Shown: positions 3,796-13,126 of the stretch, piece after piece
Layout of the letters: the number at the start of each line of letters is the position of its first letter
Position numbering within the stretch: position 1 is the stretch's first letter
Source: Candidatus Iainarchaeum sp.
Lineage (GTDB): Archaea > Iainarchaeota > Iainarchaeia > Iainarchaeales > GCA-2688035
Direction of reading: 5' to 3'
NCBI GenBank assembly: GCA_028713935.1
Contig: JAQTNI010000038.1
Span: 1-13,126 of the forward strand
DNA length: 13,126 bases
Translations under genes and position numbers: made by a program
The notes under the pieces: model-generated
Databases searched by the model: none
What the model was told of the DNA's origin: nothing
What the model saw: only the letters and a program-made list of their open reading frames with translations

Positions 3796-4701
3796 ATGAA
3801 GCTATTTGTAGTTGGGGATATCTGTCTTGATGTTTTGTGCAGCATCAGGGAACGCGCTGCCCTTGGAGAGGAAAAGCACATTGACAACCTGACATTTTCT
3901 TTGGGAGGGAATGCAGCAAATTTTGCTTTTGCAGCAGCAAAGCTCGGCCTGAAGCCGGAATTGTTCAGTGCTATTGGAAAAGATTTTGCAAGCGGTTTTT
4001 TGAAGCAGCAGGCAAAATCCGCAGGAATAAAAACGCATTTTATTGAATCAGGCTTGCAGAATTCTTATTCAATTCTTCTTGTTGAAAAAAACGGCCAGCG
4101 TTTTGCCTATTCTTCCAAAGGCGCCTTGGAAAAAGTGACTGCAAAAGAACTTGAAAAAAATCTTTTGCCAAAGCTGAAATCAGGAGACCTTGTTTTTTTT
4201 GGGGGTTATTTTCATATCCTTTCCCTGCACCCCGGCTTTCCGCAATTGCTGAAAAAAATCCGCAAAAAAAATTGTTTGATTGGCTTTGACCTGTGCTTTG
4301 ACGAATTCGGGAAATGGAAAATTTTTCACTTTCTGCATTTGATTGATTTTTTGTTTTTGAATGAATTGGAATTGACGCATCTGGCAAAAAAGAAAAGCGA
4401 GAAAGCCGCAATTGCCTTTTTGCTTGGCAAAGGCGCTTCAAATATTATCCTGAAAAAAGGCCCGAAGGGAAGCGCTTTTTTTTCAAAAGAATTTTTTTGC
4501 AGGGAAAAAGCCTTGCCTGTAAAAGCAATTGACACTACTGGCGCAGGTGACATTTTCAATGCGGCCTTTTTGAAAGCCTTTTTTTCGGGGGCTGATGCAA
4601 AGAAATGCCTTGAATTTTCAAATTTTGTTGCCGCCAAAAAAGTTGAAAAGCACGGCTTGTTTGTGCCTCCGCAAAGCATTTTAAAAAGAAAATTGCAATA
4701 A
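3796..4701 (+). CDS. PfkB-family carbohydrate kinase (ribokinase-like)
   Basis: 301 aa. It has the N-terminal GG motif (SLGGNAANFAFAAAKLG) and PfkB signature 2 (AIDTTGAGDIFNAAF). The substrate cannot be assigned from sequence by eye. Confidence 0.85.
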   Translation: MKLFVVGDICLDVLCSIRERAALGEEKHIDNLTFSLGGNAANFAFAAAKLGLKPELFSAIGKDFASGFLKQQAKSAGIKTHFIESGLQNSYSILLVEKNGQRFAYSSKGALEKVTAKELEKNLLPKLKSGDLVFFGGYFHILSLHPGFPQLLKKIRKKNCLIGFDLCFDEFGKWKIFHFLHLIDFLFLNELELTHLAKKKSEKAAIAFLLGKGASNIILKKGPKGSAFFSKEFFCREKALPVKAIDTTGAGDIFNAAFLKAFFSGADAKKCLEFSNFVAAKKVEKHGLFVPPQSILKRKLQ

Positions 4702-5918: not shown

Positions 5919-7064
5919 TTATTCCAATCCGAGTTTTTTTTGTATCAGTTCATGCATATTTTTTGCGACTGTCTTGTATGCAAATTTTTCTATTGCCCAT
6001 TTTCTTCCGTTTGACCCTGTTTTTTCGCACAAGTTTTCATCATTAAAAAGCTTTAGCAAAAATTCCGCAATTTCCTCGTGATTTGCCCTGTAAGCAAAAG
6101 TTTTCGGCTCTGGAAAGGCAACTTTCATTTTTTTTGGAAAACCCATCCAGGAATAAGCCCATTCTTCAGACAGCTTCACTTCAGAAGCAACGCTTGCCAG
6201 AAACCCGGTTTTGTTGTGGACAATCGTGTCCTTGAAAGCCATTGCGTTCATTGCAATTACTGGCTTTCCGCAGGCCTGTGCCTCAACCTGAATCATTCCA
6301 AATCCTTCAAGCCTGCTTGGTGCAGCATAAACATCACAGCAATTAATCAGGTAGGGCATGAAATCGTTTGAACAGCCATGGTCCAAAAAAATTATTTTTT
6401 CTGGGGGCAGGCCAAGCTCTTCAATCAGGCCAAGCTCGAATCTCCTGTGGTCGGAAGCGCTTGGGCTTGGCCAGGTTTTTCCGACATATTTCCAGTTTTT
6501 GAATTCCTTGTCAACAATTGCAAGCGCCCTTAAAACTTCCTGAAAACCCTTGCTTGTAGTGTCTCCGCCTGCAGTCAAAATCATTTTTTCTTCAGGATTC
6601 ACTCCAATCATTTCACGCAGGCCTGAAACAAGCGGATTTGTTTTTGGAATAGGCTTGAACAATTCAGTGTCAATTCCAATCGGCACAACTTCAATGTTTT
6701 TTCCGCTAAGGCCGTCCCGCATATAAGTTTCTTTTACCCAATTGCTTGTTGCAAGTACCAATGGCAGGCTTTCCAGTTCCTTGTGGTAATTCGCAACCCA
6801 GCCGTCAGCCACAAACCAGGGAATCGGGGTAACCCCAAATTTTTTTGGGTGATTGACTAACTGCGGAACGCTTCCCCAGAAACCAGCCCCAATTGCAACA
6901 TCAGGCTTGAATGCCTTGTAAGCCCATTCTTTCTGGAATTCAGACCTGCTATTGCAGGGCATTGCTTCAAAGCCATTTTCAAGCAGCCCCAAGTACAAGT
7001 AATGCCCCTGAAGGCTTAATCCGTCTGGCTGCGGAGGATACTCGTAAAGAACAAGGCTTTTCAT
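5919..7064 (-). CDS. Family 4 glycosyltransferase (GT-B, Glycos_transf_1)
   Basis: 381 aa. The C-terminal domain carries the GT4 hallmark APSRLEGFGMIQVEAQACGKPVIA (E-x7-E region). Confidence 0.85.
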   Translation of the reverse strand: MKSLVLYEYPPQPDGLSLQGHYLYLGLLENGFEAMPCNSRSEFQKEWAYKAFKPDVAIGAGFWGSVPQLVNHPKKFGVTPIPWFVADGWVANYHKELESLPLVLATSNWVKETYMRDGLSGKNIEVVPIGIDTELFKPIPKTNPLVSGLREMIGVNPEEKMILTAGGDTTSKGFQEVLRALAIVDKEFKNWKYVGKTWPSPSASDHRRFELGLIEELGLPPEKIIFLDHGCSNDFMPYLINCCDVYAAPSRLEGFGMIQVEAQACGKPVIAMNAMAFKDTIVHNKTGFLASVASEVKLSEEWAYSWMGFPKKMKVAFPEPKTFAYRANHEEIAEFLLKLFNDENLCEKTGSNGRKWAIEKFAYKTVAKNMHELIQKKLGLE

Positions 7065-7133
7065 CTTTAACCACGCACCTGATTGTTTATCAAAAATAAA
7101 GGCTTTCTTTCTTTTGGCAACTTACATTTCCTT

Positions 7134-7204
7134 ACAAAAGCTTCGCTTTTGTGAGGCATCACAAAACCATTGGTTTTGTAATGTCTTTCTTTGTAAAAGA
7201 AAGA
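7134..7204. repeat. Three consecutive perfect palindromes in the PIG-L/GT4 intergenic spacer
   Basis: H1 7134..7152 is acaaaagc-ttc-gcttttgt (8 bp arms). H2 7161..7179 is acaaaacca-t-tggttttgt (9 bp arms). H3 7184..7204 is tctttcttt-gta-aaagaaaga (9 bp arms). The H1 and H2 half-sites are 7/8 identical. Confidence 0.7.
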
Positions 7205-7224
7205 AAAGGCAGTAACAAGGCTTT

Positions 7225-9296: not shown

Positions 9297-9665
9297 ATGC
9301 CAAAACCAAGAAAAAGACTTGCCTCCCTTCAGTATTTGGGGCCTGAAAGAAGAAAAGAACAAGTTGGGCACCAAATTATGAGAAATGTTTTTATTCTTCA
9401 ACCACATGATTTTCCCAGAATAAATTTTGCAAAGCGACCCGGCACGTATATTATAACACTTAAAAACGGCAAAATGAGAGTCCTTGAAGTATACAAAAAG
9501 GGAAATGCTCGCATTAGTGAACCAGCTGACAATTTGCAGAAACCCAAAATAAAAATTTCTGTTGAAAAGTTTTTTTCCGACCCAGACGAAACAGCCCAAA
9601 TTTTAGACCTCGCCTATCGCACTAAAAGAATCCCAACCAGACTGTCTCGCCCATCTGAAAACTAA
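9297..9665 (+). CDS. Hypothetical basic protein (122 aa)
   Basis: ATG preceded by GGTGG (9288..9292) and a ttttata at 9274..9280. Its composition is protein-like (MPKPRKRLASLQYLGPERRK...GTYIITLKNGKMRVLEVYKKG...), unlike the antisense ORF 9276..9599. I recognise no family. Confidence 0.4.
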   Translation: MPKPRKRLASLQYLGPERRKEQVGHQIMRNVFILQPHDFPRINFAKRPGTYIITLKNGKMRVLEVYKKGNARISEPADNLQKPKIKISVEKFFSDPDETAQILDLAYRTKRIPTRLSRPSEN

Positions 9666-9700
9666 TTTTTTCCTCTGCAACCCCCATCACAAATTTTTTT
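9666..9700 (+). terminator. Oligo-T tracts after the 122-aa ORF (archaeal-type termination signal)
   Basis: A T6 run (9666..9671) immediately follows the TAA stop, and a T7 run sits at 9694..9700. Confidence 0.3.
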
Positions 9701-9812
9701 GCAATAAAAAAATGAAGTAGTAAGCGCCAAAGAAGCCTGCGACTTGTTCTGTAGTGCCTAAAGCCCACGATAAAACTATTTTTTGCCTGTGGAGCGCCAA
9801 TTCTTTTCAAAT

Positions 9813-9964
9813 CTTATCGCCTCCACTTTGGAATTTTTTTCTTACGACTTGTGCGTTGTTCGGCTTAAACCTTTGCCTTCGCTTTGCTCAGGTTAAAGGA
9901 TTTAATGCCTCCAACGCACTGCCAGTCTCCAGAAAAAAATTCTTTAATTTTTGGAGGCGATAAG
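9813..9964 (+). promoter_or_regulatory. ~152-nt imperfect long hairpin (candidate structured 5' leader / ncRNA) whose basal stem sequesters the GGAGG RBS of the downstream micro-ORF
   Basis: Nested complementary blocks checked base by base: 9813-9825/9952-9964 (13 bp), 9831-9842/9931-9942 (12 bp), 9846-9849/9924-9927 (4 bp), 9851-9858/9912-9919 (8 bp), 9862-9864/9907-9909, 9865-9869/9901-9905 and 9870-9874/9895-9899. The apical loop is 9875-9894. GGAGG at 9953..9957 pairs with cctcc at 9820..9824, and the ATG is at 9966. Confidence 0.55.
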
Positions 9965-9965
9965 C

Positions 9966-10109
9966 ATGATTTCAGAAAAACTTTTTGATTTCCCTCTGCC
10001 AAACAGGGAAGAAATAAGATTTGCAATAAAAACCGCAAAAACAAATCCAGATGACCTTGATTCAAGGCAAGCGTGGATTCTCAAAGAATTTACAAAAGGT
10101 GTTTTTTAA
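9966..10109 (+). CDS. Micro-ORF A (47 aa), hypothetical
   Basis: Below the ORF-track length cut-off. My translation is MISEKLFDFPLPNREEIRFAIKTAKTNPDDLDSRQAWILKEFTKGVF*. A perfect GGAGG lies 8 nt upstream of the ATG (9953..9957). Its stop overlaps the next ATG (taATG). Confidence 0.4.
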   Translation: MISEKLFDFPLPNREEIRFAIKTAKTNPDDLDSRQAWILKEFTKGVF

Positions 10110-10231
10110 TGAACTGGGGAATAGAGGAAAGGCGCGGTTACGGAAACTGCTTAATTGGAAAGAGACCGCATTATATACTTGCAATGAAACTTGACACAAT
10201 TGCTATTGAATTATGGGGTTGGTCTTTGTGA
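10109..10231 (+). CDS. Micro-ORF B (40 aa), hypothetical
   Basis: My translation is MNWGIEERRGYGNCLIGKRPHYILAMKLDTIAIELWGWSL*. AAGGTG at 10096..10101 lies 7 nt upstream of the ATG. Its TGA (10229..10231) overlaps an in-frame GTG (10228) of the 388-aa ORF. Confidence 0.35.
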   Translation: MNWGIEERRGYGNCLIGKRPHYILAMKLDTIAIELWGWSL

Positions 10232-11379
10232 ATAGTCTGTGTTTCAACGGCGGCTTAATTGCTAAGCACAAAGGAAGTATAGCATTAACATTGTATTCAA
10301 CCCCTTTTGCCAGATTTCTTTTAGAAAAAGGCATAAATAAGATTAACTTGAAATTTTGTAATGGGAAATTTATAGTTGGGCTTGGAGAGGATAGAAACGT
10401 TACTGTTCAAAGACAGAGTCACAATCACCCGTTATGCATTTTTTCTGTGACAAAACTGATCCCTTCTGAGTTGAAGAAAAACTTATTTTTTTCTAATAAA
10501 CAATTGAAAGTGGATGTAATTGTTGAAGACATTGTTTCTGGCGAAGATTTGAGGAAGTATAATCACAGTCTTACTTCTATTTTGCCAGATCCAAGCATAA
10601 AATCCATTCCAGAAAACGAAAAAGTGGATGTCGGTTGTCTTATTTCTTGTTCTAGGACAAAAAACAGTTTTGGGTACACTTTTAAGGTTCGCCACAAGAT
10701 ACTTGAAGAGATTGCGCTCAAGCACAAAAAAGTAATCTTAGGAAGAAACACCAATGGAAATTTTATTATTAGAAAAAACGATCAAGGAAAGGAGTTTCAT
10801 TTGTATAAATATGCAAGCGGCACTCCAGTGGCTTATATGCAAATATCGTCTCAATTTATAACTGATTCGGAAAAAAAATTATTTAAGAGCGGGAAGCGCT
10901 GCATCTCCTATAGGGCATTTCTTTCTGAAAAAGATTTTAATTTGGATATTTCCCGATTTTTCACTTACCGGGAAGAGCGCGAACTGGCTTATGCATTGCT
11001 AAAAAAAGGTGCCCCTATTAAAATACCGCGAATGAGATTGCGAGAAGCAGACATTATTTTGAGGGAGAACAATGCCCAAATTGAAGTAACAAATGTTCTG
11101 CCGAGAGAAGGCGAAAACAAAAACAACCCGCATGGAGAAGGAATGCACATTAATGGAAGGCTTTGCGAGGGTTTTCTCAGGGCAGTAAAGAAAGAAGTTC
11201 CAATATATTTTGTTGTTTTCAACAAAAAATGGCTTTCATTAAATTGGGTTAGGCAGCTTGTTGAACAAGTAAAGCCAAATGTTGTAGCAATTGGCACTGA
11301 CTTTGAAAAAGGCTGGGAAGACGAGGTTTCTGATAAAATAATAAAAACTCAAAAGAGTGCTCTTAATGATCGAATTTGA
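10213..11379 (+). CDS. Uncharacterised 388-aa protein: internally duplicated N-terminal region + C-terminal Hjc/PD-(D/E)xK-like motif
   Basis: Long ORF with normal composition. The alternative start GTG 10228 gives a GTGA overlap with micro-ORF B. Repeat units cover about aa 8-100 and 138-232 (GGLIAKHKGSIALTL / GCLISCSRTKNSFGYTF; NGKFIV / NGNFII; IPSELKKNLF / ITDSEKKLF). The C-terminus reads YREERELAYALLKKGAPIKIP...EADIILRENNAQIEVTN (10960..11097). Its stop overlaps the helicase start by 14 nt. Confidence 0.7.
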   Translation: MGLVFVNSLCFNGGLIAKHKGSIALTLYSTPFARFLLEKGINKINLKFCNGKFIVGLGEDRNVTVQRQSHNHPLCIFSVTKLIPSELKKNLFFSNKQLKVDVIVEDIVSGEDLRKYNHSLTSILPDPSIKSIPENEKVDVGCLISCSRTKNSFGYTFKVRHKILEEIALKHKKVILGRNTNGNFIIRKNDQGKEFHLYKYASGTPVAYMQISSQFITDSEKKLFKSGKRCISYRAFLSEKDFNLDISRFFTYREERELAYALLKKGAPIKIPRMRLREADIILRENNAQIEVTNVLPREGENKNNPHGEGMHINGRLCEGFLRAVKKEVPIYFVVFNKKWLSLNWVRQLVEQVKPNVVAIGTDFEKGWEDEVSDKIIKTQKSALNDRI

Positions 11380-13126
11380 AACAAAAAAAGCAACTGACGA
11401 AGAAATATTCCGCCAGCTTCACCCGCTCTTGGCAGACTGGTTTAGGAGTACATTTGGCTCTTTTACTGAGCCGCAAAAATATGCAATTCTAAATATACAC
11501 AACCATCAGAATATTTTGGTTACTGCCCCGACAGGCACCGGAAAAACTCTTTCCGCATTTACCTCGATTCTTAATGAACTGATTGCTCTCGCAGAAAATA
11601 ACCAATTAGAAGACAAAGTGTACTGTATCTACTGTTCACCCCTTCGCGCCTTATCCAATGATCTCGAAAAAAATCTGAAAGAGCCTTTGGATGCAATAAA
11701 AAAGAAAGCTTTGCAAAAAGGAAAAGAGCTGAATATCAGAGTAGCTGTTAGAACAGGGGACACAACAACTTCTGAAAGGGCAAAAATGTTGAGAAAGCCT
11801 CCACACATCTTAATTTTGACGCCAGAAACAATGGCAATAATTCTCAATAGCCCCAAATTTATTGAACACCTGAAAGAAGTGCAATGGGTAATAATTGATG
11901 AAATCCACAGCATTGCAGGCAGCAAGCGCGGAGTCCATTTGTCTCTTTCCCTTGAAAGAATGCAGATTCTTAATCCTGGTTTTTGCAGGGTTGGCCTGAG
12001 CGCTACAATTGCACCTCTTGAAGAAGTAGCAAAATTTCTTGTTGGAATGAAAAATGAAAAAGAGCCAAGAGACTGTAAAATTGTTGATGTGCAGTTCCTG
12101 AAAAAACTTGATTTGAAAGTATTAAGCCCATTGCCAGACCTGATTAACACTTCACAGGAAGAAGCCCATTCAAAGCTTTATGCGCTGCTTCACGAGCTGA
12201 TACAAGCGCACAAAACAACACTGATTTTTACAAATACAAGGTCTGCAACAGAAAGAGTAGTGCATAACCTCAAGGATTTATATGCAGAGCAATACAGCCA
12301 GGCAAATCTTGAAACACACCACAGTTCTGTTTCGAGAGAACAGCGCCTGAATGTAGAGGAAAGGCTGAAACAGGGCAAATTGAAGTGCGTTGTAAGCAGC
12401 ACTTCCCTGGAATTGGGAATAGACATTGGATTTATTGATTTGGTTGTTTTACTGGGAAGCCCAAAGAGCGTTGCAAGGGCACTGCAAAGGTGCTTTCCTT
12501 ATGATGCGCAGGTGCTAACATCCACAGGGCAATATTTTTCTATTGGCAAAATTGTAGAAAAGAGACTGCCTGTCGAAGTAATTTCTTTTGATTCTAAACT
12601 CGGTTTTGTAAAAAACAAGATAAAAGAGTATCACAAAAATGTTGCAGTGGAATTATTTAGTATCCAATTAAGATGCGGAGAGAAATTAACTTGCACTCCA
12701 AATCACCCTCTCTTAACTGATAATGGCTGGAAAATTGCATCAAAACTAAAAAATGAAGATAAAGTGGCTGAAATAAACACAGAAATTAATTTTGACTCAA
12801 AAAATCCTTTTATTTTTGAGTTGCTGCCACAAAAGCAGGTTTATGTTAAGAATGATGGCGTCTTTTTTAGAAAAGTTTTGGATAAATTTTTGGACGAAAA
12901 AAACATTAGTTTACACTATTTTTCAAAAATAAATTCGCTTAATTATAAGACGCTTATAAATTATCGCAGGAAAATAGGCAGGGGTAAAAATATTCGTCTT
13001 GACTATTTTTTGGCGATTTGCAGGATAACTGGCGCGAGCCAAAGCTTGTTTTTGCCTTTATTGCGCAACTTAAAAACACAGTGTGGTGATTTAACAAACC
13101 TGCCATTAAGGCTAACAAAAGAACTG
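11366..13126 (+). CDS. lhr: Lhr-type (DEAD/DExH, superfamily 2) ATP-dependent helicase, N-terminal part, interrupted by an intein; continues past the right edge
   Basis: Absent from the ORF track because it is edge-truncated. I translated it by hand and it is open for 587 codons. It starts with the Lhr-like N-terminus LHPLLADWFRSTFGSFTEPQKYAI. Motif I is TAPTGTGKT (11525..11548), followed by YCSPLRALSND. Motif II is DEIH (11897..11908) and motif III is SAT. Further motifs are LIFTNTRSATE, HHSSVSREQR and SSTSLELGIDIG. GSPKSVARALQR is followed by the Cys of an intein instead of xGRxGH. Confidence 0.9.
   Translation, partial: MIEFETKKATDEEIFRQLHPLLADWFRSTFGSFTEPQKYAILNIHNHQNILVTAPTGTGKTLSAFTSILNELIALAENNQLEDKVYCIYCSPLRALSNDLEKNLKEPLDAIKKKALQKGKELNIRVAVRTGDTTTSERAKMLRKPPHILILTPETMAIILNSPKFIEHLKEVQWVIIDEIHSIAGSKRGVHLSLSLERMQILNPGFCRVGLSATIAPLEEVAKFLVGMKNEKEPRDCKIVDVQFLKKLDLKVLSPLPDLINTSQEEAHSKLYALLHELIQAHKTTLIFTNTRSATERVVHNLKDLYAEQYSQANLETHHSSVSREQRLNVEERLKQGKLKCVVSSTSLELGIDIGFIDLVVLLGSPKSVARALQRCFPYDAQVLTSTGQYFSIGKIVEKRLPVEVISFDSKLGFVKNKIKEYHKNVAVELFSIQLRCGEKLTCTPNHPLLTDNGWKIASKLKNEDKVAEINTEINFDSKNPFIFELLPQKQVYVKNDGVFFRKVLDKFLDEKNISLHYFSKINSLNYKTLINYRRKIGRGKNIRLDYFLAICRITGASQSLFLPLLRNLKTQCGDLTNLPLRLTKEL
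12491..13126 (+). mobile_element. Intein (N-terminal Hint lobe plus an inserted HTH-like region), partial, inserted in helicase motif VI
   Basis: Cys1 is at 12491..12493, directly after ALQR. Block A is CFPYDAQVLTSTGQYFSIGKIVE. Block B is GEKLTCTPNHPLLTDNGWKIASKLKNEDKV, with the T-x-x-H at 12695..12706. No helicase motif VI (GRxGH) appears before the window ends. Confidence 0.85.

Follow-up and report, generated by a model that had tools for sequence, protein, structure and literature searches.

Bacterial leaders that sequester the SD include the ROSE and fourU thermometers, the type I toxin mRNAs hok, tisB and aapA1, and the RNase III-processed leaders of lambda N and adhE. In archaea, post-transcriptional control in general is poorly mapped, and to our knowledge structured cis-regulatory RNAs are almost unknown in the DPANN archaea.

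Here we describe a long hairpin in a 13,126-nt stretch of Candidatus Iainarchaeum sp. DNA, which is called the window below. It resembles the bacterial SD-sequestering leaders in that an anti-SD pairs with the SD just before a start codon, an arrangement which in those leaders keeps translation off until the structure is melted, cleaved or bypassed. In the window and in a related contig, this anti-SD/SD pairing is conserved together with the small ORF that follows it.

The hairpin and the ribosome site within it

Using RNAfold, positions 9813–9964 of the + strand (152 nt) fold into one unbranched rod of 57 pairs, with a minimum free energy (MFE) of -65.1 kcal/mol. Dinucleotide shuffles of the same segment reach -28.8 ± 3.4 (z = -10.8; 0 of 200 as stable), and the hairpin ranks first in stability among the 160-nt windows across the 13 kb. 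Its helices are 13, 13 (with one G-U pair), 4, 8, 3, 5 and 5–6 bp long, followed by 3 + 2 bp at the apex, and the outer helix is cttatcgcctcca/tggaggcgataag. A preliminary description, made from the letters alone, had proposed a 152-nt hairpin with helices of 13, 12, 4, 8, 3, 5 and 5 bp and a self-complementarity beyond that of the surrounding DNA. Both points hold, and the helices are close to those claimed; within the 20-nt apical loop that it gave, the 3 + 2 bp form.

The minus strand folds equally well (-67.4 kcal/mol, z = -10.6), and only 2 of the 57 pairs are G-U. This makes the hairpin a Watson-Crick palindrome, without a signature of either strand.

The left arm (9816–9880; ATCGCCTCCA...GCCTTC) carries a distal anti-SD CCTCC at 9820–9824 and a T7 tract at 9834–9840. 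The apex, which is free to vary, lies at 9881–9893. In the right arm (9890–9961) there follow a TATA-like TTTAAT (9901–9906), a proximal anti-SD CCTCC (9908–9912), a third anti-SD CTCC inside GTCTCCAG (9925–9932), an A7 tract (9933–9939) and the SD itself, GGAGG (9953–9957), all on the + strand. This is the sole GGAGG within 9501–10400, and the ATG of a 47-codon ORF is at 9966, with a single nucleotide between the hairpin and the start codon. The claim that the only strong SD of the region is buried in the outer 13-bp stem was therefore correct.

According to the partition function, the SD has an unpaired probability of 0.00 at 37 C in any transcript begun at or before 9813. In a transcript from 9900 it is still masked by a local hairpin, GUCUCCAGAAAAA/UUUUUGGAGGC, and it becomes partly free (0.22) only with an RNA start at about 9931. 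With anti-SD segments starting at 9820, 9908 and 9925, each of the three is able to mask the single GGAGG.

Searching the whole window and the related contig with Rfam 15 (cmscan, E <= 1), no match was found at the hairpin, ROSE, fourU, SRP RNA, 6S RNA and riboswitches included, in agreement with the earlier statement that no known RNA family could be recognised. There are no tRNA genes in the window. Two structural motifs were also considered. A BHB (two 3-nt bulges around a 4-bp helix) was rejected because the candidate GACU/AGUC is flanked by a 3x3 and a 1x4 internal loop and its helix is 3 bp in the related contig, and a k-turn was rejected on the anatomy of the hairpin.

Conservation of the arms and of the small gene

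A closer relative with the hairpin and the small ORF at the same place is a contig of Ca. ainarchaeum sp. STB_123 (L020). L020 is syntenic with the window, with the PfkB, GH, GT and PIG-L genes upstream and the Lhr gene downstream. Its hairpin (6738–6885) stands directly before the ATG of the small ORF and has the same fold (MFE -62.9 kcal/mol). A covariance model of the hairpin (R1; 0 branch points) detected just these two copies among the 123 kb of loci scanned, one in the 13-kb window, where no second copy exists elsewhere, and one in the 17-kb L020.

The conserved block comprises the hairpin, the 47-aa ORF and about 40 nt of 3' sequence (9801–10146, + strand; 86.7% identical to L020 6725–7067 by blastn). 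Homology sets in abruptly, about 12–17 nt upstream of the hairpin, and stops about 40 nt past the small ORF, while both flanks of the block are non-homologous or rearranged. To the left of the left arm, neither a conserved gene nor homology was found between the window and L020.

Within the block, the left arm is 98% identical (64 of 65 nt) and the right arm 90% (65 of 72 alignment columns). As a neutral background, four flanking genes have a dS of 0.9–1.3 and a third-position identity of 0.53–0.64, and intergenic DNA elsewhere is identical at about 50% of positions. The differences follow the structure: there are 2 in the core stems of about 100 nt (~2%) and 4 in the internal loops (~11%), while the apex (13–19 nt) differs by about 50% and has been rebuilt, with GCTTTGCTCAGGT in the window vs TGTTGAAGGC in L020. 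The L020 apex, GCCTTC-TGTT-GAAGGC, is a perfect GCCTTC/GAAGGC stem with a tetraloop, and the stem is closed in both genomes. The outermost three pairs of the window cannot form in L020, which leaves a conserved SD helix of 10 bp. Because the apex has diverged almost neutrally while the arms are intact, a recent transfer cannot explain the identity of the arms, which are under purifying selection.

With two sequences only, 55 of the 59 consensus pairs are invariant, 4 have one-sided G-U changes and none a double change. The preliminary description had proposed compensatory changes at orthologous loci as a check on the element. The element is indeed present and under purifying selection in L020, but compensatory changes are not seen; since the stems are almost invariant, covariation is uninformative here rather than negative. 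Over the whole conserved block, RNAalifold gave no convincing long-range pairing outside the hairpin. Conservation of this kind strongly implies that the hairpin, which belongs to no Rfam family, is a functional element and not chance or junk DNA.

An ORF of 69 aa runs across the hairpin. It has no homologue, a search for spurious gene calls of this ORF at other copies found none, and its frame is broken by a 1-nt and a 3-nt indel in L020, so that coding does not explain the hairpin, as had been stated from the sequence of the window. With the frame lost, coupling of ribosomes from its stop codon (9961–9963) to the ATG at 9966 was also rejected.

The 47-aa ORF (9966–10109, + strand; MISEKLFDFPLPNREEIRFAIKTAKTNPDDLDSRQAWILKEFTKGVF) belongs to an unannotated small-protein family. 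It is 85% identical to P0014 of STB_123, with a dN of 0.085, a dS of 0.41 and a dN/dS of about 0.2, and judged from these substitutions it is a genuine gene under purifying selection. A profile search against 1.84 billion representatives found 13 further proteins of 43–69 aa (E < 1e-3), with the signature F-x-F-P-x-P-S-x-E-E-I ... N-P-x-D-L-D-x-R-E-x-W-I-L-x-x-F; E16, P28, L31 and W37 of the ORF are conserved. Structure prediction gave a hairpin of two helices (pLDDT 78). No match to the family was found in Pfam, in NCBIfam or in viral scans, and a PDB fold search gave no significant match. Some genomes have more than one copy of the family: P0014 and P0029 both occur in MAG PHH08/STB_123, and in MAG PHD95 the identical P0028 stands under two accessions.

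Some family members (P0017, P0023, P0027 and P0019) were called with N-terminal extensions (MPPKAAEPSTKKFFNLEVV..., ...EKEFNASKSFISLQKKFYEGDK). When back-translated, the extensions are colinear with the right arm of the window for about 62 nt, from TTTAATGCCTCCAA through AAAAAATTCTTTAAT to the SD and the ATG, and they score 5–8 sd above shuffled peptides, although the CAACGCAC segment of the right arm differs in P0023 and P0027. These distant members are only about 45% identical in protein. Since the extensions read the right arm in two frames, the conservation is at the nucleotide level and not at the protein level.

The stop codon of the small ORF is overlapped by a T6 tract (10102–10107, + strand; T7 in L020), a possible archaeal oligo-T terminator. 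The next ~45 nt (10110–10155 in the window, 7034–7076 in L020) are 74% conserved. An overlapping 40-aa ORF there is not conserved as a protein, the changes being mostly non-synonymous, and these ~45 nt may serve the small gene as a 3' UTR or a terminator element. As to T runs in general, sense runs of 6 or more T are about 3-fold rarer in the genes of the window than runs of 6 or more A (22 vs 65), while the A:T ratio is only 1.2:1. This scarcity fits a role of oligo-T as a transcription termination signal in this archaeon; T7 nonetheless occurs 10 times within genes.

Another contig, L001 (Logan SRR22315509), corresponds to 9852–12118 of the window and is an independent assembly of the same sequence. 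The break, at 9852, falls within the hairpin and lies 30 nt (exactly k-1) before the point where the apices of the window and L020 diverge. A branch of the de Bruijn graph at this point is what one would expect if the sample contains a second variant or copy of the hairpin with the same left arm.

Gene neighbourhood and searches for further copies

The window is cellular and not viral, as it codes for an ABC transporter, a LUD-domain protein, a PfkB kinase, a glycoside hydrolase, a GT4 glycosyltransferase, a PIG-L deacetylase and an HD-methyltransferase. The hairpin is followed by the 47-aa ORF, a 388-aa ORF without Pfam domain (10213–11379) and an Lhr-type helicase (11366–13126) that overlaps the stop codon of the 388-aa ORF. 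The homologues of the 388-aa protein carry the annotation Candidatus Diapherotrites, which places the source among the DPANN archaea, and the 388-aa + Lhr pair recurs in six other loci (L002, L004, L006, L009, L015 and L016) with 46–59% protein identity. None of the six has the long hairpin upstream, L002 having just a 50-nt SD hairpin, and a six-frame hmmsearch found no relative of the 47-aa ORF in them. With six loci lacking both the hairpin and the small ORF, the hairpin is not part of the helicase operon as such. The preliminary description had seen in it the buried ribosome site of the first ORF of an operon. Occlusion of the SD of the adjoining ORF stands, while the tie to the operon is lost: L020 keeps the hairpin and the small ORF without a 388-aa gene, and the T6 tract lies on the stop codon of the small ORF.

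Several side observations were made in the neighbouring genes. The 388-aa ORF, which has no PHROG domain either, lies directly upstream of Lhr and often overlaps it in at least 7 Diapherotrites loci, and its product is an uncharacterised helicase-associated family. The Lhr-type helicases of the window and of L020 (7173–11477) contain inteins at different sites. In the window the intein follows motif VI (LQR|C, from ~12491; Pfam Intein_splicing at aa 392–528), and in L020 it comes right after the P-loop, GTGK|C (Intein_splicing at aa 130–629 of a 1434-aa protein). The Lhr inteins of L006 and L015 carry LAGLIDADG domains. In L004, a short ORF at ~3850–3935, upstream of the 387-aa gene (MIKFAKQPYTQEQVRGILNPIVEKWFF), is like the N-terminus of Lhr and may be a relic helicase-gene fragment. 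Three perfect palindromes, all of them short (fold z = -4.4), stand in the intergenic region between GT4 and PIG-L (7065–7224): CAAAAGCTTCGCTTTTG and CACAAAACCATTGGTTTTGT, both within a 54-nt segment that L020 lacks, and CTTTCTTTGTAAAAGAAAG.

Further copies of the hairpin were searched for by its termini. In the genome collection, a pattern of 13 + 13 nt gave no match, this pattern being one base too long per side for the L020 variant. A scan of metagenomes with 11 + 11 nt, again one base too long for the L020 variant, gave L011–L013 only, which are unrelated SD-like coincidences, and a viral scan with 10 + 10 nt gave one high-GC coincidence. Neither blastn nor tblastn found a match among plasmids and phages. 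L011 (VYMD01005300.1) contains at 1494–1654 a 161-nt almost perfect palindrome of its own (-117 kcal/mol), at the end of a 1.6-kb contig of 55% GC. Outward from either end it reads GGAGGCGAT-ATG. This palindrome has no relation to the element of the window; it is either an inverted duplication of the 5' region of a gene or an assembly artefact.

Possible functions and comparison with known systems

Because both strands fold equally and compensatory changes are lacking, the sequence does not tell action at the RNA level from action at the DNA level. Tentatively, and with slightly less than even confidence, we favour a new lineage-specific archaeal (Iainarchaeia, Diapherotrites, DPANN) leader hairpin, which would hold the ribosome site of the small gene closed through occlusion of the SD at the RNA level. 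In a transcript with both arms, about 150 nt would fold into a single rod, and the extended SD, UGGAGGCGAU, would pair with the upstream anti-SD, AUCGCCUCCA, so that translation of the 47-aa ORF would be off by default. Two more CCUCC-like segments of the right arm would stand in as anti-SD in shorter RNAs. The site could be opened by an RNA start inside the right arm (from TTTAAT at 9901–9906, with a start near 9931), by endonucleolytic removal of the left arm or by active unwinding. We infer the action as + strand RNA, the translational repression and the mode of opening.

The AUCGCCUCCA/UGGAGGCGAU pairing is invariant in the window and L020 and lies 1–4 nt before the ATG of the orthologous ORFs. 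Both non-Watson-Crick pairs are G-U on the + strand, and one G-C to G-U change (pair 84–102) retains pairing on the + strand only; these count for the leader reading. As nothing is conserved beyond the left arm, the conservation of this arm is most simply explained by its pairing with the right one. Against a leader, the U7 of the left arm and the U5–6 of the right arm would be archaeal termination signals within it, and the internal TATA-like box could mean that the mRNA never includes the left arm. Just upstream of the left arm there is no convincing promoter and the DNA is not conserved. Moreover, double changes are zero, the stems are invariant with only two full copies, and both strands fold equally.

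The preliminary description had listed a thermosensor, a riboswitch and a MITE-like element among the candidate roles, and a thermosensor, a riboswitch or a classic MITE is unlikely. RNA thermometers have a weak, mismatched SD helix. Here the SD lies in a perfect, GC-rich 13-bp helix (10 bp conserved) with 7–8 G-C pairs, in a rod of -65 kcal/mol that will not melt, which makes this role implausible. A riboswitch, with several helices and a conserved junction or loops, is implausible as well: the hairpin is unbranched, it has no junction, and its loops and apex vary more than its stems, the reverse of an aptamer. For a MITE no support was found. There is one copy per locus, at the same site in both genomes. 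The flanks (...ttttcaaat | cttatcg and cgataag | catgattt) contain no direct repeat that could be a target-site duplication and differ in L020, and the conserved unit holds the 47-aa gene under purifying selection and thus fails to be non-coding.

The most serious rival, which we nevertheless regard as unlikely, is a palindrome that acts as DNA and contains the small gene's own promoter. In the right arm, a BRE/TATA (AAAGGATTTAAT) would direct transcription from near 9931 and so give an SD leader of 35 nt, the left arm would be a mirrored copy with a DNA function (symmetric regulator binding, a bidirectional promoter, an oligo-T terminator or insulator, or a cruciform), and the long hairpin would never exist as RNA. 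TTTAAT at 9901–9906 resembles the TTTAAAT/TTTATAA boxes that precede other starts in the window and in L020 by 34–55 nt, and stands at a typical distance for the 35-nt leader. The stretch conserved in the distant family members is the right arm, exactly from this box to the ATG. Oligo-T is present on both strands through the T7 and A7 tracts, the two strands fold alike and contain hardly any G-U, an RNA from 9931 has a partly open SD, and no promoter is recognisable left of the hairpin. However, some 140 bp of near-invariant DNA far exceed what a promoter or operator needs, and the region from TATA to start is not normally conserved. The minus-strand mirror leads to nothing conserved, with a 62-aa ORF in the window vs an unrelated 116-aa antisense ORF in L020. 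Finally, the gradient of differences, lowest in stems, higher in loops and highest in the apex, is as a base-paired element predicts.

Less probable, and in our view quite improbable, is a recombination or mobility site of a 'hairpin + ORF' cassette within Iainarchaeia, foldback/MITE-like or attC-like, which would be folded as single-stranded DNA. The sharp bounds of the 9801–10146 block, with flanking genes that differ on both sides between the genomes, would fit such a cassette. So would the multi-copy family (P0014 with P0029, P0028 under two accessions), the break of L001 at 9852, expected if a second variant shares the left arm, and a palindrome that is Watson-Crick and strand-symmetric. 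Yet in both genomes the block lies at one and the same syntenic position, between PIG-L and Lhr, and it has no target-site duplication. With an apex near saturation and an ORF dS of 0.41, the copies must be old. No further copy was found in the genome, metagenome, viral, plasmid and phage searches, whose patterns were too strict even for the L020 variant. As for attC, the core sites RYYYAAC ... GTTRRRY (the R boxes) are absent from the ends, which are ATCGCCTCCA and TGGAGGCGAT, with no GTT in 9940–9975; there is a single hairpin instead of an array, and neither an IntI integrase nor a transposase is among the window ORFs. More doubtful again is the specific form in which the hairpin and the 47-aa gene would make up a self-contained multi-copy cassette, the palindrome serving as a single-stranded DNA recombination site with an attC- or IS200/IS605-like function and an unrelated sequence, and the promoter and ribosome site lying inside the hairpin. 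If this form were true, the element would represent a new type of small gene cassette in archaea, mobile or duplicative.

Least probable of all is a free-standing stable ncRNA of either strand, or a processing substrate acting in trans, which merely abuts the ORF: its very stable structure, conserved stems and following oligo-T on both strands would suit this, but it matches no Rfam family at E <= 1 and has no BHB or k-turn motif, the exact SD/ATG juxtaposition is kept in both genomes, and distant homologues keep the right arm together with the ORF.

If the leader reading is true, a conserved rod of ~150 nt would gate an uncharacterised multi-copy small-protein family beside an Lhr helicase. 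The locus would be a concrete and testable example of archaeal translational gating or, alternatively, a palindromic promoter or cassette site, and in addition a new small-protein family is flagged for annotation. No principle is overturned; the value lies in the motif, which is new, and in an entry point to the regulation of small genes in uncultivated archaea.

Among the known elements, attC sites, archaeal integrons included (Ghaly et al. 2022, PMC9668308), share with the hairpin an imperfect palindrome that folds as a single strand directly upstream of a short ORF, with a variable centre and conserved ends. The window element differs from them in lacking the RYYYAAC/GTTRRRY cores, an array and an integrase, in its length (152 nt vs the usual 57–141 nt) and in having an SD within the stem. 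ERIC, Correia/NEMIS and the Sulfolobus SM elements are likewise imperfect intergenic palindromes of 100–150 bp, AT-rich and foldable on both strands, which can sit in a leader and carry promoter-like boxes. Unlike these, the window element occurs once per locus at an orthologous position, has no target-site duplication and is conserved with a coding gene.

Compared with the bacterial leaders, the element is archaeal, a rod of ~150 nt and -65 kcal/mol vs hairpins of 20–60 nt, has three alternative anti-SDs and matches none of these families in Rfam. With hok, tisB and aapA1 it shares a very small ORF and a structure too stable to open spontaneously, while the 47-aa peptide is hydrophilic and helical and not a membrane toxin. 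By analogy, its function would most resemble that of such small-ORF mRNA leaders, which need processing. We therefore class the element with these leaders, as an archaeal and unusually long leader palindrome with redundant anti-SD segments that is tied to a new small-protein family.
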